From: Escherichia phage warpig
Sequence record: MN850637.1
Length of the DNA stretch: 64,000 nucleotides
Reading direction: 5' to 3' (one strand)
Position numbers and translations under genes: made by a program
Shown here: positions 2,597-10,276 of the stretch, piece by piece
Position numbering within the stretch: position 1 is the first letter of the stretch
How the letters are laid out: each line of letters opens with the position of its first letter
Notes under the pieces: model-generated
Databases searched by the model: none
The model's input: only the letters and a program-made list of their open reading frames with translations
What the model was told of the DNA's origin: nothing

Positions 2597-3112
2597 ATGT
2601 ATCTGTCAAACCTGAAACGTTCGGTTGCAATGTCAGTTCTAAGACTCAGCTTTGATGAGCGTCAAGAGTTTATAGACTCCCACAAATATGACCCTTCAAA
2701 TTCTAATCACATGGTTCTTTGGAATCGTGACAACTTCCGTGAAAGAGCACTTGTCCGTTATTACCCACACTACACAATAGATAACCTGTATGAATGGTGT
2801 GTTGTGAAGAACACCATTGCAACACTGAACAATCTTTGCAGGTATACAGGTAAGCAAACATTTACACTAGGCCACCACAAACCTGTTACAAAAGGTGGTG
2901 AACATCACTGTGCGAACTGGTTTATCCAAACTAAAGCTGATAACCAGAAGCAAGGAGATAGCCTCCTAAGTATCCCTAAGATGACCTATGAAGAGCAAGA
3001 GAAATATATCAAAAATAATATGCCAGATGTGCTTGACAACAACTATACAGATTTGGCAATATCTCTCCTGTTGAAGTTCGAGACAGTTTATAGGGCAACT
3101 TATAATGGCTAA
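2597..3112 (+). CDS. HNH-type endonuclease-like protein (putative homing endonuclease)
   Basis: 171 aa; segment LGHHKPVTKGGEHHCANWFIQTKADNQKQGD resembles the HNH His-His..N..N core. Confidence 0.4.
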   Translation: MYLSNLKRSVAMSVLRLSFDERQEFIDSHKYDPSNSNHMVLWNRDNFRERALVRYYPHYTIDNLYEWCVVKNTIATLNNLCRYTGKQTFTLGHHKPVTKGGEHHCANWFIQTKADNQKQGDSLLSIPKMTYEEQEKYIKNNMPDVLDNNYTDLAISLLLKFETVYRATYNG

Positions 3113-3383
3113 AGAAAAGTGGGGGATTTTACCATTAGTCAGTGAAGGAGGTAATGGTTGTGAGATGTACATGATACGTGGTCATGTTCCAGAACCAATT
3201 GCACTTGAGATGGTAAACAACTTTACAGATGGTTCTTACAAAGACTTAGGAGAGCCAACTATAAAGCAGCAATGGGTAAAGCCTGTCCCAGACAGCACAG
3301 GTAACTGTAGTGTACTTTACCACGTTGTAGACCCTGTAAAATGCAAATCTGCAATGGCAGTAACAAACGTAACTTTTGATTGA
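3105..3383 (+). CDS. hypothetical protein
   Basis: ORF track; translationally coupled to flanking genes. Confidence 0.4.
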   Translation: MAKEKWGILPLVSEGGNGCEMYMIRGHVPEPIALEMVNNFTDGSYKDLGEPTIKQQWVKPVPDSTGNCSVLYHVVDPVKCKSAMAVTNVTFD

Positions 3384-4276
3384 GAGAGAAAACTATGAAA
3401 ACATCTATCCGTGTCACAATTCATTCACCGACTAAAGGAACTCATGAAGAAGAGTTTAACATCATCCAATTCCCTTCTGGTGAGATTGGTGGCCACTTTT
3501 CACAAGAGCTTGTTGATTTTACTGCTTATGCAGCATCATCTATTAACAATGTGGTTATGATTGTAAAGGGTTATGACAAAGACACACTGTTTGCTGTGGC
3601 ACTGGCTAAAGAAGCAATTGACGATTTAGTTCCTCATGATTATGCCCTGAAGACTGTCATTTTTTACTACTTGCCAAATGCACGATACGACCGTCACATG
3701 TTTAAAGGCGACGCAGCAGCTTTAAAGGTTTTTGCTAAACAGGTAAATGCAATGGGATTTGGTGCAGTCTGTGCAGTTGACCCTCACAGTTATGTACCAG
3801 ATAACCTGTTTAACTGCTTCCAAAGTATTCCTCAAAAGGAGATTGCAGTCCACTATGCAAATGACCCTCTAATTGATTACTTAGTAGCCCCAGATGCAGG
3901 TGCTTCTAAGAAGATTGCAGAGACTGCTAAAGAGGCGGATAAACCATATATCACAATGTCTAAGGTGCGAAATCTTAAGACTGGAGAAATCACTGGTATG
4001 CGAATCCTTGACGATGTTGATTTGACCGATAAAACCGTCATGATTCTTGATGATATCTGTGATGGTGGTCGAACCTTCGTAGAGGCAGCTAAACACCTAC
4101 GTGAAGCAGGTGCAAAACGTGTTGAGCTTTATGTAACACATGGTATCTTCTCTAAAGGTGTTGAAAACCTTCTTGACAACGGTATCGACCATATTTACAC
4201 TACAAACTCTTTAGGCGAAGCTAAAGACCGTGGCTTAACACATTATGGTCAAGTTACTGTAGCAAACCTTGATTGA
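3380..4276 (+). CDS. ribose-phosphate pyrophosphokinase (PRPP synthetase)-family protein; candidate ADP-ribose pyrophosphokinase of an NAD+ reconstitution pathway
   Basis: 298 aa; phosphoribosyltransferase-type PRPP-binding loop VMILDDICDGGRTF; directly upstream of a NAMPT-like gene. Confidence 0.75.
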   Translation: MREKTMKTSIRVTIHSPTKGTHEEEFNIIQFPSGEIGGHFSQELVDFTAYAASSINNVVMIVKGYDKDTLFAVALAKEAIDDLVPHDYALKTVIFYYLPNARYDRHMFKGDAAALKVFAKQVNAMGFGAVCAVDPHSYVPDNLFNCFQSIPQKEIAVHYANDPLIDYLVAPDAGASKKIAETAKEADKPYITMSKVRNLKTGEITGMRILDDVDLTDKTVMILDDICDGGRTFVEAAKHLREAGAKRVELYVTHGIFSKGVENLLDNGIDHIYTTNSLGEAKDRGLTHYGQVTVANLD

Positions 4277-4285
4277 AACTTTATA

Positions 4286-4308
4286 GGGGCTTGAAAGCCC
4301 CATTTTGA
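4286..4308 (+). terminator. hairpin GGGGCT/AGCCCC with short T-run
   Basis: inverted repeat between the two NAD-pathway genes; weak T tract, so may be attenuating only. Confidence 0.35.
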
Positions 4309-4321
4309 GAGAGATTAAAAG

Positions 4322-6103
4322 ATGACTAAATCACTTTATGCAGTACCAGCAGGTTTAAACGCAGATGCTTACAAGTCTGGTCATGTTTACCAGTATCCTA
4401 GTGCAACAGAGTACTTGATGTTCAACCTGACACCACGTAGTGACAAATGGTTTAACAGCCCCTTAGCAATTGATGGTGTAGTGGCTTTTGGTATTCAACG
4501 TTTCGTTAAAGATTACTTGATAGACCACTGGAACGCCACTTTCTTTGAACGTGATAAAAAAGAAGCAATTGACGAAATCTTAGAAGTCATGAATGGTGTT
4601 TTGGGTAAAGATGCTATCGGTCGAGAGCATTGGGAAGCACTTCACGACTTAGGCTATCTACCAGTTGAAGTATACGCTGTAGAAGAAGGTACAGTTGTTC
4701 CGATGCGTGTCCCAATGATTGTCTTTCAGAACACTGTTTCAGGTTTCCATTGGGTAGCAGGGTATCTGGAAGATGCTTTCTCTGCTGAGATTTGGAAGGC
4801 TTGTACCATTGCAACTATTGCATTGCACTACAAACGTATCTGTAAGAAGTGGGCTGACCTTACTTGTGACAATGACTTACATTTACCTTACCAGTGCCAT
4901 GACTTTGCTATGCGTGGTATGTCAGGCTTTACTGATGACGCATTTAACGCTGTAGGCCACTTAACCAGCTTTAAAGGGACTGATAGCTTCCCTGCTGTAT
5001 ATACAGCTAAACGCATCTACGGACAGTCTTACCCAGTCTCTGATATTGGTGGTTCTGTACCAGCCACTGAACACTCTGTAATGTGTGCAAACATTGCTTG
5101 GGAAGGTGGTAATGAATTGATTGAAGAGGAAAGACGCTTTAAAGGTGAATTACAAACCTTCCGTCGCTTCTTAACAGAAACTTACCCAACTGGTATTGCA
5201 AGTATTGTTTCAGATACTTATAACTTCTGGAGAACTGTGTCAGAAATCTTACCAGCACTTCGTAAAGAGATTATGGAACGTGACGGTAAACTGGTAATTC
5301 GTCCTGACTCTGGAGACCCTGTACATATTGTCACAGGTTATAAAGCAATCCACTTAGAGTGTGCTAAAAAGGCTTATTACGAGCACCTAAGCAAGCTGGA
5401 AGCCAGTGACACAATGCTGAATGCTGTTCTGAACATGAAGCTTGAAAACATCAGCTATGGTATTGCTGGATGGCTACTGTCAGAAGGCTACGAAATGGTT
5501 GTTGACCGAGAAGACTTTGAAGTTGCTGATACAGTGATGTTGAAAAATACTTATATGGTTGGCTCTGCAAACGTTGTAACACGTCCTGTAGCAGAGATTG
5601 ATGGAGCTATTAAGACCCTGTACAACATCTTCGGAGGGACTATTAACTCTAAAGGGTTTAAGGTACTGGATGAGCACATCGGCCTTATCTATGGTGACTC
5701 TATCACACTGGAACGTGCAAACGAAATCCTGAAGCGTCTGTATGAAATGGGTTTTGCAAGCTCTAACGTAGTGTTTGGCGTAGGCTCTTACACTTACCAG
5801 TACATGACTCGTGACACCTTTGCATTTGCTGTTAAAGCAACTCTTGCAAGCATTGGTGGTAAAGAGATTATGCTTGCAAAAGACCCTAAAACAGATAGTG
5901 GTGTTAAGAAGTCTGCTTTTGGTGGTGTAGCACCTATGTGGGATGGTGATAAGTTGAAAGCTGTAGATGGCTATGGATTCCAGAGCTTTGCAGATGCACT
6001 TGAACATCCAGCTTGTGCTTTACGTTTAGTCTTTAGTGACTCTGAGCAGTACGGTTACACATCTCTTGGTGATATTCGAAATAATATTGACAAGCAGCTT
6101 TAA
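4322..6103 (+). CDS. nadV: nicotinamide phosphoribosyltransferase (NAMPT/NadV)-family protein
   Basis: 593 aa; NAPRTase-family signature LVIRPDSGDPV; N-terminal YKSGHVYQYP. Confidence 0.8.
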   Translation: MTKSLYAVPAGLNADAYKSGHVYQYPSATEYLMFNLTPRSDKWFNSPLAIDGVVAFGIQRFVKDYLIDHWNATFFERDKKEAIDEILEVMNGVLGKDAIGREHWEALHDLGYLPVEVYAVEEGTVVPMRVPMIVFQNTVSGFHWVAGYLEDAFSAEIWKACTIATIALHYKRICKKWADLTCDNDLHLPYQCHDFAMRGMSGFTDDAFNAVGHLTSFKGTDSFPAVYTAKRIYGQSYPVSDIGGSVPATEHSVMCANIAWEGGNELIEEERRFKGELQTFRRFLTETYPTGIASIVSDTYNFWRTVSEILPALRKEIMERDGKLVIRPDSGDPVHIVTGYKAIHLECAKKAYYEHLSKLEASDTMLNAVLNMKLENISYGIAGWLLSEGYEMVVDREDFEVADTVMLKNTYMVGSANVVTRPVAEIDGAIKTLYNIFGGTINSKGFKVLDEHIGLIYGDSITLERANEILKRLYEMGFASSNVVFGVGSYTYQYMTRDTFAFAVKATLASIGGKEIMLAKDPKTDSGVKKSAFGGVAPMWDGDKLKAVDGYGFQSFADALEHPACALRLVFSDSEQYGYTSLGDIRNNIDKQL

Positions 6104-6118
6104 AAGTATATGATAAGA

Positions 6119-6143
6119 GGCTCCTACGGGAGCCTTTTTAATT
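6119..6143 (+). terminator. Rho-independent terminator
   Basis: GGCTCC-TACG-GGAGCC followed by TTTTTAATTT. Confidence 0.6.
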
Positions 6144-6156
6144 TCTGGAGAAGACT

Positions 6157-6492
6157 ATGAAAATCAAAGAAATGAACATCAATATTGTCTTAGAAGAACG
6201 TTGGGAGAACATCAAGAAGCCTGAAGATGGTAAGAAGTTCCTTAACAAAATTTTAGTAGCAGCTAAAGAAGAACTGACTGGCAAGATTGCAGCAGCAATC
6301 ACAATAAAAGTCTGTGTAAAAGGTCTTCCAGACAACCACCAATTTGCGCTTGACGAGTTTAAAGAAAGCTTCTACAATCCAAACAAACAGATGCTTGAAA
6401 GTAACTTTGCAGTATCTACAAGTATCGTCCATGACAGAAGCTTTATCCTTTACAAAAATATGAGAGGTGAGTCATGCAAGCATATTGGATAG
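6157..6492 (+). CDS. hypothetical protein
   Basis: ORF track; ATG preceded by GGAGAAG. Confidence 0.45.
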   Translation: MKIKEMNINIVLEERWENIKKPEDGKKFLNKILVAAKEELTGKIAAAITIKVCVKGLPDNHQFALDEFKESFYNPNKQMLESNFAVSTSIVHDRSFILYKNMRGESCKHIG

Positions 6493-6650
6493 AAATTTTA
6501 CTGTCACTTGGTAGTGTAGCAGTTTTTGTTTACCTTCTTTGCAAGTACTATGCAGAGTACAAGAAGTGTGATTACTGCAACGGGGAAGGGTACACAAGAG
6601 CAGGTTGTTGCCCTATTTGTGGTGGTTCTGGTAAAATGTTTAATAAGTAA
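6474..6650 (+). CDS. small membrane-anchored zinc-ribbon peptide (58 aa, two CxxCxGxG motifs)
   Basis: Not in the >=60 aa ORF track; ATG at 6474 preceded by GAGGTGA; translation MQAYWIEILLSLGSVAVFVYLLCKYYAEYKKCDYCNGEGYTRAGCCPICGGSGKMFNK. Confidence 0.4.
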   Translation: MQAYWIEILLSLGSVAVFVYLLCKYYAEYKKCDYCNGEGYTRAGCCPICGGSGKMFNK

Positions 6651-6678
6651 TTTAACAGTAAACTAAGAGGAAAGTATT

Positions 6679-9045
6679 ATGCGCATGGTAAACGACCACG
6701 CAGAAGTGATTAAGAGTTCAACTTCTTTGGAGACATCTCAAGCACAGATTACAATGACACCTGAAATGTTCAGCCTTTTGAGTTCAGGTGTATACACATT
6801 CAAAGAAAGGGCAGTGATTCGTGAACTGTCATGTAACGCAGTAGATGCTCAAAAAGAAGCTGGAAAAGAGAACATCCCATTCCATGTGCATTTACCTACT
6901 CGATTTGAGCCTTACTTTGAAGTCCGTGACTTTGGAACTGGTTTAACCCATGACAAAGTAATGAGTTTGTATCTGAACTATGGGGCTTCTACGAAGAATG
7001 ACTCCAATGATTACATTGGTGCAATGGGTATCGGCTCAAAATCACCATTTGCAATTGCTCAGTCATTCACAGTATCTAGCTATGTTGATGGTGTTGTTAA
7101 TAAGTACTCTGTTTACCTTGAGAATGGTATCCCTCAAGTAACTAAGCTTACTACCAACCCAACAAATGAACCCAATGGTTTAGCTGTACGTGTAGCAGTT
7201 GCTGACCATCGTATTTCAAAGTTCTTTGAAGAGGCTGGTCACGTATACTCATACTTTGCTGTAAAACCAGAAAGTAACATTGTATATGATGATGTATTAG
7301 CAGATATGAATGTCATTGCCCGTGAAGATGGTGTTTATGATGCTATGATTCATAAGCAAAGCTGGCGTTCTAGTGGTAACAGGACAGAGTTTAATGTGGT
7401 GATGGGTAATATTGCCTATCCAGTGAACATGGAAGCATTACTTGGTGATGATTTCTTCAAAGTCTTGCCAGAGTTTTTCCGTAGGAGCGTAGACCTTGTA
7501 AACATCTACATGCCTATTGGTTCAGTTGCTATAGCAGCTTCTCGTGAAGCCTTGCAGATGAATGATACGACAAAAAATGTTATCATTGAGGCAACTAAAA
7601 AGATAACTGAAGCAATTACAAAGGATGTTATCAAGAAAGTTAATAGCCAACCTACACTCATGGATGCTGCACAGGCTTATGCTGAGTTACGTTTGAACTC
7701 ACGAGAGATGTTTAATGCTGTGTGTCCAAAGCTAGAGTGGGGAGGCGTTAAGCTTGATTCTCTGGAAGAAGAATTACTAAACATTCGTCGTGGGATTATC
7801 TACGCAGAAGACGGCTCAGTCATTTATGAACGTGACGGTAAAGGTAATATCAAGGTTGATAGGAACGGGAACAATATCCCTAAAGTGGATTATCTTTATA
7901 ATCCAGTTGCTTATGTCAAGTTCAACTCTTTAGAGAGTAAGATTCGTGCAGCAGCACTTTCCTACACTCAAGAGGCAAGTATGTTCAATATCTTTGGTGC
8001 AATGCGTAAAAGCCAAATTGAACAGTTTTTGTTCGTGATTAATGACCGTCGTAATAAAAATGGCACTGAGAAGACTGTAGGCCGCAATCAGATTCTGCGT
8101 GGTGCATGTCGAGACTACGCTAGCGAGTCAAGCCTGTTCCACAGATACAATGGTATTGTGTTTGTATTCTCGACTGAAAAAGAGTTAGATGATTTAATCA
8201 ATCTACACAAGCTTGATAAAAGTTTGTTAAAGATTGTGAAGATGTCTGATAAGGAACACCATTATCAGCGTAAAGAAGCTGTGAGGGGTGTTGTAAAACT
8301 CTGGAAAGCTGTTCCATCAGAAACTAAAGCTTCATACACAGAGGTGTCAGAAGACCTAGATACAATTGAAGAACCCCAGCTTTATATCAAGGCAGTAGGC
8401 GACACAGTTGATGGTGAATGTTTTTGCTCATCCCCAGAAGATGTAGCTAAAACAATTGCTAATGTTATAGGAAAAACAGTCTATGTTTTCCGAAAAGCAA
8501 ATTGGAAAAAGATACCAGAAGACTGGATTGAAGTAGATGAGAAGCTATTGAATGACAGCTTAACTGATGTTCACTGGATTAATCATAACAGGTATATGAC
8601 ACGTATCTATATGAATGGTGTCCTTGACCTTACAAGTAGTTGGATTATTGCCAGAAACTTTACGTTTAATAACAAGAAGATTTCTCGCGGGTATTGCTAT
8701 TCACGAGATACAAACAAAACCATCTTCTTAGAAGGTAATGAGAATGCTGTTGAGGCAATGTTTGGTAAGATTCAGTATGTGGCTGCACCGTTTGCATACA
8801 CTTACACTATCAGTGTTCTTCAGGATTTGAAGTCATGCCTTGACAATGATACAAGACTGTACAAAAAGATTAAGAAAGCGGGTGACCGCATGGTTATCAA
8901 ACTGACAAACTATCTTTCAAAAAGAAAACAAGAAAACTTCTTGCTTTCTCATTTAGATTGGAATAAAGTGTCACCCATCGAAGTGAGTAAGTTCTTAGGT
9001 TTTGATGTGAAGTGTGTTCCAGAAGGAACTACAATTTACGATTAA
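6679..9045 (+). CDS. rIIA: rIIA-like protein (GHKL/histidine-kinase-type ATPase N-terminal domain)
   Basis: 788 aa; N-terminal ATPase-like region (RELSCNAVDA...VRDFGTGLTHD...GAMGIGSKSPF); immediately followed by an rIIB homologue. Confidence 0.75.
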   Translation: MRMVNDHAEVIKSSTSLETSQAQITMTPEMFSLLSSGVYTFKERAVIRELSCNAVDAQKEAGKENIPFHVHLPTRFEPYFEVRDFGTGLTHDKVMSLYLNYGASTKNDSNDYIGAMGIGSKSPFAIAQSFTVSSYVDGVVNKYSVYLENGIPQVTKLTTNPTNEPNGLAVRVAVADHRISKFFEEAGHVYSYFAVKPESNIVYDDVLADMNVIAREDGVYDAMIHKQSWRSSGNRTEFNVVMGNIAYPVNMEALLGDDFFKVLPEFFRRSVDLVNIYMPIGSVAIAASREALQMNDTTKNVIIEATKKITEAITKDVIKKVNSQPTLMDAAQAYAELRLNSREMFNAVCPKLEWGGVKLDSLEEELLNIRRGIIYAEDGSVIYERDGKGNIKVDRNGNNIPKVDYLYNPVAYVKFNSLESKIRAAALSYTQEASMFNIFGAMRKSQIEQFLFVINDRRNKNGTEKTVGRNQILRGACRDYASESSLFHRYNGIVFVFSTEKELDDLINLHKLDKSLLKIVKMSDKEHHYQRKEAVRGVVKLWKAVPSETKASYTEVSEDLDTIEEPQLYIKAVGDTVDGECFCSSPEDVAKTIANVIGKTVYVFRKANWKKIPEDWIEVDEKLLNDSLTDVHWINHNRYMTRIYMNGVLDLTSSWIIARNFTFNNKKISRGYCYSRDTNKTIFLEGNENAVEAMFGKIQYVAAPFAYTYTISVLQDLKSCLDNDTRLYKKIKKAGDRMVIKLTNYLSKRKQENFLLSHLDWNKVSPIEVSKFLGFDVKCVPEGTTIYD

Positions 9046-9050
9046 AGTGT

Positions 9051-9124
9051 TTGACAAGGGGCTTCGAAGCCCCTTAGAATAGCCTTACAAAATGATTTAT
9101 TAACTAACAAGAGAGAGTAATAAG
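9051..9124 (+). promoter_or_regulatory. promoter-like element TTGACA-N18-TAGAAT with perfect 16-bp palindrome GGGGCTTCGAAGCCCC in the spacer
   Basis: Read directly; same palindrome-in-spacer layout as the class-1 cassettes at 15-18.5 kb. Confidence 0.4.
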
Positions 9125-10234
9125 ATGACTACTAAAACTAAAGCACAGATTGACGCAGAAATTTACGAACTGGTTAAAGAAGGTAAGCTGACTAAAACAG
9201 CTATTGCACAGAAGTTCAATACTTCAACCCGTTCAGTTGGTCGTGCTGTAGAGCGTCATGAAGCAACCTTAAAAGGTAAGAAAAAGGTAGCTTCTAAACC
9301 AGCTACGAAGACTTTGAAGCAAGTTGCTAAATCAGTTAAAAAGAAAGCTGACAAACCAGTTGAAAAGGTTGTTAAAGAGCCTGTACAGAAAGCTCCGGTA
9401 AATAAACTGCATGAAGCTATGCAGAATGGCAACCAGATTGAGTACATGATTACTGGCGACTCTGTTATCATGACTTTCGGTGCAGATTCTGAAATCGTTG
9501 AATCTACCCATCCGAACTACAAAGAAATCGTGATGGCTGTTGTATCCGGTGAGTATAAGAAAGCTTTCGAACTGATGAACATTCGTAAGTCTATCGAAAA
9601 CTTCACTCAGGGTACTATCACCATCAAAGGTGACAAGTTATTCTACGGTGCTGTTGAGATGCGTTCTACTCTGGTTGACCGTATTCTTCACATGATGAAG
9701 ACTGGAGATAAGGGTTTTGAACGCCTTGTGATGTTCTTCGAAAAACTGATGGAAAACCCATCTAAAGACTCTGTAGAACAACTTTGGGGATTCGTATCTC
9801 ACCTTGATGTTGAAATTGATGAAGAAGGCTACATCATTGGTTGGAAGAAAGTCTCTACTCATGAAGGCAAGCTGGTTGACTCCCACACCTACAGAGTACC
9901 TAATGATTTGGGTAACATTGTAGAAATGCCACGTTGGATGGTTGATAATAACCGTAACGTGACTTGCTCTCAGGGTCTTCACGTTGGTGCTTGGGATTAT
10001 GTTCGTTGCTTCTCAGGTGATACAATCCTGAAGGTTCGTGTCCATCCACGAGATGTTGTATCTGTTCCAACTGATTACAACGATATGAAGATGCGTTCGT
10101 CTCGTTATGAAGTTGCAGCAATCGTTGATAATCAACGTAAAGTGCTGAAAGAATGGGATGGCAAGACTGAAGCTTTGCATGTCATCGTTGGCACTGCTGG
10201 TGAACTAATCTCCCAACGTAAACGTGAAATCTAA
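9125..10234 (+). CDS. rIIB: rIIB-like protein
   Basis: 369 aa; central/C-terminal blocks (LFYGAVEMRSTLVDRIL, KVRVHPRDVVSVPTDYNDMKMR) match my recollection of T4 rIIB. Confidence 0.7.
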   Translation: MTTKTKAQIDAEIYELVKEGKLTKTAIAQKFNTSTRSVGRAVERHEATLKGKKKVASKPATKTLKQVAKSVKKKADKPVEKVVKEPVQKAPVNKLHEAMQNGNQIEYMITGDSVIMTFGADSEIVESTHPNYKEIVMAVVSGEYKKAFELMNIRKSIENFTQGTITIKGDKLFYGAVEMRSTLVDRILHMMKTGDKGFERLVMFFEKLMENPSKDSVEQLWGFVSHLDVEIDEEGYIIGWKKVSTHEGKLVDSHTYRVPNDLGNIVEMPRWMVDNNRNVTCSQGLHVGAWDYVRCFSGDTILKVRVHPRDVVSVPTDYNDMKMRSSRYEVAAIVDNQRKVLKEWDGKTEALHVIVGTAGELISQRKREI

Positions 10235-10250
10235 TAAGTAATTTCTTAAA

Positions 10251-10276
10251 AGGCTGCTTCGGCGGCCTTTTTTATT
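10251..10276 (+). terminator. Rho-independent terminator
   Basis: AGGCTGC-TTCG-GCGGCCT stem followed by TTTTTTATTT. Confidence 0.6.

Follow-up and report, generated by a model that had tools for sequence, protein, structure and literature searches.

The window (the whole 64,000-nucleotide stretch of the Escherichia phage warpig genome analysed here, MN850637.1) contains a short open reading frame (ORF) which lies directly upstream of rIIA and encodes a protein of 58 amino acids, MQAYWIEILLSLGSVAVFVYLLCKYYAEYKKCDYCNGEGYTRAGCCPICGGSGKMFNK. The features of this locus are collected in Table 1. The GAGG core of the Shine-Dalgarno sequence and the ATG of the 58-aa ORF are separated by 6 nt, and similar purine runs were found 5' of the start in the homologues from Sf13, SUSP1, Krischvirus and P778. 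A preliminary description of the locus had reported a 58-aa ORF with a strong ribosome-binding site, and both its exact coordinates and the GAGGTGA were verified, as was its overlap with the 3' end of the preceding ORF. The identical 19-nt overlap is found in Bas63, JLBYU28, Sf13 and SUSP1, making translational coupling of the 111-aa and 58-aa ORFs possible.

Table 1 Features of the region around the 58-aa ORF (positions are those of the window).
Feature	Start	End	Strand	Remarks
Sigma-70-like promoter, TTGACA-16-TATGAT	6087	6114	+	11/12 match; upstream of the 111-aa ORF (ORF111); putative, consensus scan only
G+C-rich hairpin with T tail	6115	6138	+	After the Namat gene; terminator-like, consensus scan only
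111-aa ORF (PHROG 4262)	6157	6492	+	Co-oriented with and overlapping the 58-aa ORF; no transmembrane segment
Shine-Dalgarno sequence GAGGTGA	6464	6470	+	Ends 3 nt before the ATG of the 58-aa CDS; read from the sequence
58-aa protein CDS	6474	6650	+	ATG start; orthologue of Felix O1 ORF131 / Felix01p243, PHROG 3931
Overlap of 58-aa ORF start with 111-aa ORF 3' end	6474	6492	+	19 nt
Predicted transmembrane helix, residues 5-23	6486	6542	+	WIEILLSLGSVAVFVYLLC; Kyte-Doolittle 19-residue maximum and AF2 helix
First CxxCxGxG motif, CDYCNGEG	6567	6590	+	Residues 32-39 (C32, C35, G37, G39)
Second CxxCxGxG motif, CPICGGSG	6609	6632	+	Residues 46-53 (C46, C49, G51, G53)
rIIA	6679	9045	+	phrog_612, E 1.4e-189; annotated rIIA in relatives; starts 28 nt after the 58-aa stop codon
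rIIB	9125	10234	+	phrog_609, E 3e-88; annotated rIIB in relatives
Strong terminator-like hairpin	10248	10271	+	Directly 3' of rIIB; consensus scan only

The 58-aa protein matched the phrog_3931 HMM over its full length (E 9.8e-33, residues 1-58 on positions 1-59 of 59). It differs by two substitutions, Y29H and I48M, from the product of Felix O1 ORF131 (Felix01p243, NP_945023, 58 aa, "hypothetical membrane protein"), which occupies the matching place, with ORF130 on one side and rIIA on the other. Felix O1, Bas63, JLBYU28, Sf13 and SUSP1 have it annotated, as do around two-thirds of the sampled annotated records. The preliminary description had called it unannotated, which is correct for the nearest record, garuso, where it is missing from the annotation, but not overall: the gene is already catalogued and is conserved in Felix O1-like phages (Ounavirinae). 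One record labels a member of the family "heat shock protein", while the PHROG 3931 and ORF131 records, as seen by us, nowhere state its zinc-knuckle nature. Word-indexed searches, using either the single sequence or a five-sequence profile, found nothing beyond phage orthologues and four frameshifted variants, none with a functional name, and Pfam and NCBIfam gave only sub-threshold matches to the single sequence. An exhaustive profile search produced 1498 matches, mostly multi-repeat CxxCxGxG proteins or DnaJ which are similar at the level of the motif; only about 10 short proteins among them have the layout of a transmembrane segment plus knuckle. Candidate orthologues from IMG/VR (L019-L022) were rejected, as their CxxCxGxG pairs lie inside large unrelated phage proteins of 380 and 460 aa.

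The preliminary description had counted a frame not conserved in related genomes among what would refute this gene, and we found the frame to be conserved. In Felixounavirus its pN/pS was 0.09, in comparison to 2.0 and 1.0 for the other two sense frames, and 22 of the 33 variable sites of the ORF were third codon positions; in Moogle/Suspvirus pN/pS was 0.14, with values of 1.0-2.0 in the other sense frames. The ORF is intact at every Ounavirinae rIIA locus having upstream DNA, including that of SUSP1 (L055), whose G39D substitution takes it outside the strict motif pattern. Across the six frames of the window, CxxCxGxG matched at the two sites in this ORF and nowhere else, while 100 shuffles gave a mean of 0.17 single motifs and never a pair. 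C32, C35, C46, C49, G37, G51 and G53 were invariant in 14 diverse relatives at 21-55% identity and G39 was kept in 13 of the 14, so that the conservation of the Cys residues on which the preliminary description had wished to see the zinc site judged is borne out. It could be argued that this is a chance ORF and not a gene, as it is short, is missing from the annotation of garuso and related MN850xxx records, and is frameshifted in a few genomes, phiWec177 among them. However, low pN/pS in the 58-aa frame alone effectively refutes this, and the intact ORF at the Ounavirinae loci, the conserved ribosome-binding site, the invariant Cys and Gly residues and the absence of motif pairs from the shuffles also stand against it; we consider its probability to be negligible. 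ORF 6474..6650 is a genuine small gene under purifying selection.

The 58-aa gene appears to belong to a single transcription unit, ORF111-ORF58-rIIA-rIIB, which is bracketed by a putative promoter and terminator-like hairpins. Co-transcription is predicted here from the sequence, and it should be noted that the consensus scan found 24 promoter-like sites where 19.7 were expected. The predicted unit lies downstream of the NARP1 NAD+-reconstitution genes, and the order Namat, ORF130/111-aa ORF, 58-aa ORF, rIIA is common to Felix O1, Bas63, JLBYU28, Sf13, SUSP1 and L023. Both flanking modules act in counter-defence: NARP1 is proven to do so in Bas63, where it consists of genes 79-80 (bioRxiv 10.1101/2024.02.11.579819), and rIIA/rIIB of SUSP1 are required against lambda RexAB (PMC11879866). 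RIIA, RIIB and ORF111 contain no hydrophobic segment of transmembrane grade, and the 58-aa protein is the only predicted integral-membrane product of the unit.

We scanned 80 rIIA loci for linkage of the two genes. The 58-aa gene was found directly 5' of rIIA in all five of the lineages examined: Felixounavirus, Mooglevirus, Suspvirus, Kolesnikvirus and the P778/L025 lineage, the last of which retains the homologue upstream of an rIIA of only 37% identity even though ORF111 is absent. No CxxCxGxG pair was found within 2.5 kb at any of the 52 rIIA loci of other phage groups (rIIA identity of 42% or below); at one locus (L057) the genes upstream of rIIA are instead one for a CCA-adding enzyme and an 86-aa ORF with a soluble product. 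T4 rIIA.1, which has the same position in T4, was rejected as a counterpart as it is an unrelated soluble helical protein. Since the linkage to rIIA is confined to one subfamily and its close kin, it may represent mere inherited gene order.

The 58-aa protein is predicted to be a single-pass (bitopic) inner-membrane protein. The highest-scoring 19-residue Kyte-Doolittle window covers residues 5-23 and has a score of 2.1, values above about 1.6 being the usual sign of a membrane-spanning segment, and AF2 modelled residues 3-28 as a single helix followed by the knuckle, at moderate confidence (mean pLDDT 74, pTM 0.33); the one transmembrane helix which had been noticed from the sequence is thus supported by both. 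The hydrophobicity of the helix is kept across the 14 relatives despite sequence variation. Net charge is -1 in the N-terminal flank and +3 in the C-terminal domain, with K24, K30 and K31 following the helix, and by the positive-inside rule this suggests an N-out/C-in orientation which would place the Cys4 site in the reducing cytoplasm. A signal peptide or lipoprotein was considered and rejected, as the n-region has no positive charge, Cys23 is unconserved, and the residue preceding Cys23 is Leu, where a lipobox requires G, A or S.

C32, C35, C46 and C49 are predicted to make up a single, anti-TRAP-type Zn(Cys)4 centre. The preliminary description had proposed a DnaJ-type zinc-finger pair; the CxxCxGxG module is indeed related to the DnaJ cysteine-rich domain (family profile vs 1exk, E 4e-12; single sequence, E 0.0027), but the "pair" would be a single centre, and the "four Cys pairs" described are in fact two pairs, giving four liganding Cys. 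The protein did not reach the gathering threshold of PF00684 (15.3 bits vs 32.7, profile positions 42-65 only). Whereas DnaJ/Hsp40 proteins have four motifs, two interleaved zinc centres, a J domain and C-terminal substrate-binding domains, the phage protein has two motifs and one predicted centre, and Pfam and NCBIfam gave no match to a J domain (HPD motif).

A closer likeness was found to anti-TRAP (RtpA) of Bacillus, which at ~53 aa similarly has two CxxCxGxG motifs, separated by a spacer of 6 residues (the same length in the alignment), and one Zn(Cys)4 centre. The best Foldseek matches in the PDB were the anti-TRAP structures 3ld0, 3lcz and 2bx9 (rmsd 1.0-1.2 A over 29 residues, 28-34% identity, probability 0.98-1.0), and the family profile matched 3lcz with E 4.8e-5. 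The curated anti-TRAP cut-offs were not reached, however (Pfam PF15777, 10.6 vs 32; NCBIfam NF058604 RtpA, 10.6 vs 65). To our knowledge the enterobacterial hosts have no TRAP. Anti-TRAP is also soluble and trimerises by a C-terminal helix (PMC2896485), while the model of the 58-aa protein has no C-terminal helix, its sole helix being N-terminal and membrane-spanning.

A possible distant member of the family was found in Krischvirus (RB49-like), where a 52-aa "putative membrane protein" has, like the 58-aa protein, a transmembrane segment, CxxCxGxG-x6-CxxCxGxGK and a "GCC" doublet. It shows about 42% identity over 50 residues, the two families are reciprocal best cross-family tblastn matches (E 0.05-0.2 in one direction and 2e-3 to 0.1 in the reverse) and the RB49 protein (Q7Y3T0) ranked second in BFVD; homology is plausible but not proven, as the protein is so short and dominated by its motifs. 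Its gene lies after an nrdC/nrdH glutaredoxin gene, unlike the 58-aa ORF with its position upstream of rIIA, and in Makalu_002 it begins 11 nt inside the nrdC stop region, an arrangement repeated in L027. Some DnaJ-type zinc fingers lacking a J domain are credited with disulfide isomerase activity, and taken with the overlap of the nrdC/nrdH 3' end this means that the 58-aa protein might be a membrane-bound redox partner acting in thiol-disulfide exchange. An extra Cys beside C46 (Cys45), which makes a "CC" doublet in 8 of the 14 sequences, could be cited in favour of such a role. This Cys is not invariant, however, the Ounavirinae loci have no redox gene beside the 58-aa ORF, and Cys4 zinc sites of DnaJ-type knuckles are mainly structural, so we find a redox function very improbable.

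The best reading of the available data is that the 58-aa gene is accessory and dispensable, as has been seen for the SUSP1 orthologue (AVU07_agp080), which was classed as "Not Fit", with no fitness effect scored on knockdown, in a published CRISPRi-ART screen in a laboratory host; the frameshifted alleles of a few genomes also speak for dispensability. The knockdown result also bears on lysis, as Felix O1 gp131 was listed among five holin candidates by Whichard et al. 2010 due to its transmembrane segment and charged C-terminus (PMC3185647). A role as holin or other lysis-timing membrane protein would agree with the small size of this membrane protein, its transmembrane segment and its lysine-rich C-terminus, and the neighbouring genes carry the database label "lysis inhibitor". 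Nevertheless, the protein has a single transmembrane helix together with a conserved, predicted-cytoplasmic Cys4 knuckle, which known holin classes do not have. A phage deprived of its only holin should form far fewer plaques or none, and the "Not Fit" classification therefore argues against this reading. The genes beside it are rIIA and Namat, with neither endolysin nor spanins adjacent; expression of the adjoining Felix O1 genes 130 and 1 is highest at 25 min (middle) and not late; and the Krischvirus homologue belongs to the Straboviridae (T4 family), members of which use the T holin. The holin reading is disfavoured, and we see even less room for it than for a redox function.

As the 58-aa protein has neither a J domain nor a catalytic domain, we read it as a protein-binding module. 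Anti-TRAP acts purely through binding another protein, and a protein with a comparable layout is known from Arabidopsis: FIP has a transmembrane anchor followed by a stromal C4 finger of two CxxCxGxG motifs, lacks a J domain and binds FtsH5, and without its transit peptide it consists of a short luminal N-terminus and one transmembrane helix before the finger (PMC5915565). The phage protein shares this layout, with the finger on the cytoplasm-equivalent side in its predicted topology, although FIP is eukaryotic and plastid-targeted and the likeness is architectural. The preliminary description had raised small peptides of this kind as candidate regulators or inhibitors of host proteins. The protein might act independently of RII by inhibiting or modulating one of the host's inner-membrane proteins (e.g. 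FtsH, a transporter or a defence system's membrane effector), with the transmembrane helix keeping it in the plane of the membrane and the knuckle docking on the cytoplasmic surface of the target, like FIP or anti-TRAP; its adjacency to rII would then be inherited gene order in an accessory/counter-defence region. In addition to the architecture of FIP and the inhibitory role of the closest solved fold, this would fit with the position of the gene between two proven counter-defence modules, with the "Not Fit" classification in a host poor in defences, and with the Krischvirus homologue, whose location away from rII indicates that the family can work without rII adjacency. Against it, nothing singles out FtsH as the target, and in an accessory region the company that a gene keeps says little about its function. 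We consider independent inhibition a possible but fairly unlikely explanation.

Instead, we marginally favour the reading that the 58-aa protein is a protein-binding module tethered to the inner membrane on its cytoplasmic face, preferably acting with or alongside RII. Its very short N-terminus would be periplasmic, the helix at residues 5-23 would cross the inner membrane, and the lysine-rich C-terminal 35 residues would lie in the cytoplasm, where C32, C35, C46 and C49 would hold one zinc ion and the knuckle could bind a partner at the membrane surface, recruit it or block it. The protein is apparently co-expressed with rIIA and rIIB, whose products, themselves lacking transmembrane segments, work at the membrane, and it may act with or beside them in shielding the membrane of the infected cell from abortive-infection systems. 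This functional link to RII is speculative, and taken by itself we would call it rather unlikely. A stronger version, which we regard as distinctly unlikely, is that in Ounavirinae the rII module has a third component, this protein, which would tether or position RIIA/RIIB by its knuckle and be needed for RII-mediated escape from membrane-depolarising abortive infection of the RexAB type. The T4 RII proteins are membrane-associated without any such partner, so a membrane anchor is not obligatory, and our search of the literature on RIIA/RIIB and the membrane found no small partner protein.

The mechanism of RIIA/RIIB is among the oldest questions of phage biology, with an action at the membrane and against RexAB-type exclusion to be reconciled with proteins which have no membrane-spanning segment. 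A tiny conserved protein, predicted to be integral to the membrane and encoded just 5' of rIIA across a subfamily, is a cheap and testable candidate for an RII partner, and its position between NARP1 and rII also makes it a reasonable candidate for anti-defence screens. Genetically tractable phages exist for such work: Cas13a has been used to edit Bas63, and SUSP1 has been through a CRISPRi-ART screen. If neither link is true, the 58-aa protein would be another small accessory membrane protein, and the lesson would be that length cut-offs drop this gene from many Felixounavirus annotations.

ORF58 is, with high confidence, a real gene. Its coordinates, 6474..6650 (+), were exact as first described, and reading them gave the 58-aa product MQAYWIEILLSLGSVAVFVYLLCKYYAEYKKCDYCNGEGYTRAGCCPICGGSGKMFNK. 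A good Shine-Dalgarno sequence, GAGGTGA, lies at 6464-6470, in agreement with the strong ribosome-binding site of the preliminary description, and the reported overlap with the preceding ORF amounts to the final 19 nt of ORF111 (111 aa); this overlap is present in Felixounavirus, Mooglevirus and Suspvirus. Contrary to one part of the refuting condition, the frame was conserved in relatives, with pN/pS in the range of purifying selection. For 12 distinct Felixounavirus alleles it was 0.09 in the ORF58 frame but 2.0 and 1.0 in the two alternative sense frames, and 22 of 33 variable sites were third codon positions; for Mooglevirus and Suspvirus alleles it was 0.14 vs 1.2 and 1.7. Intact ORF58 was found in every IMG/VR Ounavirinae rIIA locus with upstream DNA, counting as intact the SUSP1 orthologue, which lies outside the strict motif pattern (G39D change).

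The closest relative over window positions 5500-9500 was Escherichia phage garuso (98.5% identity), and approximately 200 further Felixounavirus genomes (Ounavirinae, Felix O1 group) were 94-97% identical. ORF58 had been described as unannotated, but it is already catalogued as PHROG 3931 (full-length match, E 9.8e-33) and Felix O1 ORF131 (Felix01p243, "hypothetical membrane protein"), and is annotated in Bas63 (bas63_0083, "putative membrane protein"), JLBYU28, Sf13, SUSP1 and most sampled records. Neither garuso nor the sister MN850xxx records include it, presumably due to a length filter. The feature first described is real and right in outline, and its family is catalogued and functionally uncharacterised.

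The only CxxCxGxG matches in six frames of the 64-kb window were the two in ORF58; 100 shuffles gave a mean of 0.17 single motifs and never a pair. When 14 relatives, the most distant at 21% identity, were aligned, exactly C32, C35, G37, C46, C49, G51 and G53 were invariant, with G39 in 13 of the 14 sequences and an extra Cys45 in only 8. The cysteines are therefore conserved, but the two motifs supply four liganding Cys, enough for one zinc centre, rather than the four Cys pairs first counted. With the single ORF58 sequence all matches were sub-threshold, both in Pfam (DUF5351, E 0.0017; DnaJ_CXXCXGXG, 0.024; Anti-TRAP, 0.59) and in NCBIfam (DnaJ, E 0.0033; RtpA, 0.48). With a profile of the 14 relatives, matches reached E 4e-12 for 1exk, the cysteine-rich domain of E. 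coli DnaJ, and E 4.8e-5 for anti-TRAP (3lcz), and the top Foldseek ranks were three anti-TRAP structures (rmsd 1.0-1.2 Å over 29 residues, 28-34% identity), with DnaJ and BSD2 below them. By alignment, the 6-residue spacer between motifs is the same in ORF58 and anti-TRAP, where adjacent motifs have one zinc in common, whereas DnaJ's four motifs interleave into two centres and ORF58 has two motifs. Because of these profile matches, the Foldseek ranking and the spacer, the domain is predicted to belong to the DnaJ cysteine-rich superfamily and to form one Zn(Cys)4 knuckle like that of anti-TRAP. The proposed DnaJ-type zinc-finger pair stands as regards its motifs and superfamily, but not as a pair of fingers. 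No J domain was found in ORF58, and a co-chaperone identity was therefore rejected.

The CxxCxGxG zinc knuckle is a module widely reused across phage proteomes. Two distant IMG/VR matches, a 380-aa acidic protein (L019, 2601..3743) and a 460-aa protein (L022, 3162..4544) encoded upstream of a major-capsid-like gene, contain an internal CxxCxGxG-x(5-8)-CPxCxGxGK pair; both are large and unrelated to ORF58.

The one TM helix first described was recovered at residues 5-23 (Kyte-Doolittle 19-residue score, KD19, 2.1), and the AlphaFold2 model (mean pLDDT 74) has a single helix at residues 3-28 followed by a small beta knuckle. Across the 14 relatives the hydrophobicity of this segment is kept and its sequence is not. 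ORF58 has neither a signal-peptide n-region nor a lipobox. No positive charge occurs in its N-terminal flank (net -1), while K24, K30 and K31 come after the helix, and the net charge of the C-terminal domain is +3. Since the positive charges sit C-terminal of the helix, the positive-inside rule would place the knuckle in the cytoplasm, a location also favourable to a thiolate zinc site.

Features of the ORF58 locus and of the likely Krischvirus homologue
Feature	Coordinates	Remarks
"Ribose-phosphate pyrophosphokinase"	3380..4276	database label
"Nicotinamide phosphoribosyltransferase"	4322..6103	database label
Sigma-70 promoter, near-perfect	6087-6114	TTGACA-16-TATGAT; consensus scan, pattern match
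Terminator-like hairpin	6115-6138	10-bp, G+C-rich, T tail; consensus scan, pattern match
ORF111	6157..6492	PHROG 4262, Felix O1 ORF130
ORF58	6474..6650	feature studied
rIIA	6679..9045	
rIIB	9125..10234	
Terminator-like hairpin	10248-10271	consensus scan, pattern match
Krischvirus locus, Ec_Makalu_002 (L006)	2736..3153	protein of 52-58 aa, TM + CxxCxGxG-x6-CCxxCxGxGK; start inside nrdC/nrdH 3' end
Krischvirus, second locus (L027)	3742..4177	as for L006

The gene pair at 3380..6103 is orthologous to Bas63 genes 79-80. Experiments identified the Bas63 pair as Adps and Namat, which belong to NARP1, an NAD+-reconstitution pathway that overcomes SIR2-HerA and further defences based on NAD+ depletion (bioRxiv 10.1101/2024.02.11.579819). 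The Bas63 genes are not PRPP synthetase and NAMPT, and the usual labels are therefore misleading. ORF111 has no family match and no TM segment; it is absent from the lineage of P778 and L025 (L025 being a P778-related metagenomic contig). The zinc-knuckle protein thus occurs without ORF111, which is no obligatory partner. Genes for HNH homing endonucleases interrupt this conserved block at differing points, between ORF58 and rIIA in L025 (884..1378) and between Adps and Namat in SUSP1 (L005, 593..1084).

ORF58 or its homologue immediately precedes rIIA in five lineages: Felixounavirus, Mooglevirus (Sf13, Michonne), Suspvirus (SUSP1), Kolesnikvirus (Erwinia phage M7 gp087) and the unclassified Yersinia phage P778 lineage. 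The rIIA of L025 is only 37% identical. The linkage does not generalise beyond this group, as no CxxCxGxG pair occurred within 2.5 kb of any of the 52 rIIA loci that belong to other groups of phages. T4 rIIA.1, which occupies the corresponding position in T4, is unrelated.

The predicted promoter and hairpins, which are pattern matches and not proof, bracket ORF111-ORF58-rIIA-rIIB. Within this unit only the ORF58 product has a hydrophobic segment of TM grade (KD19 maxima: RIIA 1.29, RIIB 0.78, ORF111 1.17). The Namat stop codon falls within the promoter, which directly adjoins the first hairpin; a transcript from this promoter would start inside the hairpin. A second near-consensus sigma-70 promoter (TTGACA-18-TAGAAT, 9051..9080) in the 79-nt rIIA-rIIB gap suggests that rIIB may be transcribed independently of rIIA. 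This would fit the Felix O1 RT-PCR of Whichard et al. 2010, a gene set with gp131 outside it, because gene 2 peaks at 10 min, before genes 130 and 1, which flank gp131 and peak at 25 min.

SUSP1 needs rIIA and rIIB against lambda RexAB but can do without them on Rex-free E. coli (PMC11879866). In a genome-wide CRISPRi-ART screen of SUSP1, the ORF58 orthologue AVU07_agp080 (phrog_3931) was "Not Fit" (score 1.05, 7 guides) and rIIA "Semi-Fit" (1.83) (PMC11879866). The score of AVU07_agp080 (L005, 3501..3680) exceeded that of every upstream neighbour (-1.5 to 0.1) and was nearer that of rIIA (PMC11879866 supplement 16); it may reflect polarity on, or translational coupling to, rIIA, or else a mild effect of AVU07_agp080 itself. 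Felix O1 gp131 was listed among five possible holins by Whichard et al. 2010, purely on small size, a TM segment and a charged C-terminus (PMC3185647). A holin is disfavoured by the "Not Fit" knockdown and by the predicted cytoplasmic zinc domain. A third argument against a holin is the likely homologue in Krischvirus, which belongs to the T4 family, whose phages use the T holin.

In Krischvirus (RB49-like T4 relatives) the likely homologue is linked not to rIIA but to the nrdC/nrdH glutaredoxin gene, whose 3' end it overlaps. The Krischvirus and Ounavirinae proteins are reciprocal best cross-family matches, suggesting common origin or horizontal exchange between the two phage families.

In phiWec177 (L110, 975..1166), a 1-nt deletion in a GGGG run (window 6581..6584) gives a 63-aa frameshift product without the zinc knuckle, and three more independent frameshift variants (P0005, P0006 and P0007) were found in single contigs each. 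These alleles are either natural loss-of-function or homopolymer sequencing errors.

The ORF58 product is far too small and featureless for an enzyme. All characterised J-less relatives of its zinc module act by protein binding, the partners being TRAP for anti-TRAP, FtsH5 for FIP and the Rubisco large subunit for BSD2. By analogy, the most economical mechanism would be that the protein is tethered in the inner membrane and binds another protein at the cytoplasmic face. For its architecture, the closest precedents are anti-TRAP as regards the knuckle and plant FIP as regards the TM-plus-knuckle layout. An accessory or counter-defence role that is useful under some conditions fits the evidence, because ORF58 has a proven counter-defence module on either side, is apparently co-expressed with rII, has an orthologue in SUSP1 that a laboratory strain does not require, and is occasionally frameshifted in sequenced isolates. 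It may work with RII, a tentative possibility, or, with a slightly lower probability, act independently on a host target. A role as membrane partner of RIIA/RIIB, testable with existing phage-engineering tools, is the one reading which, if true, would raise the value of ORF58.
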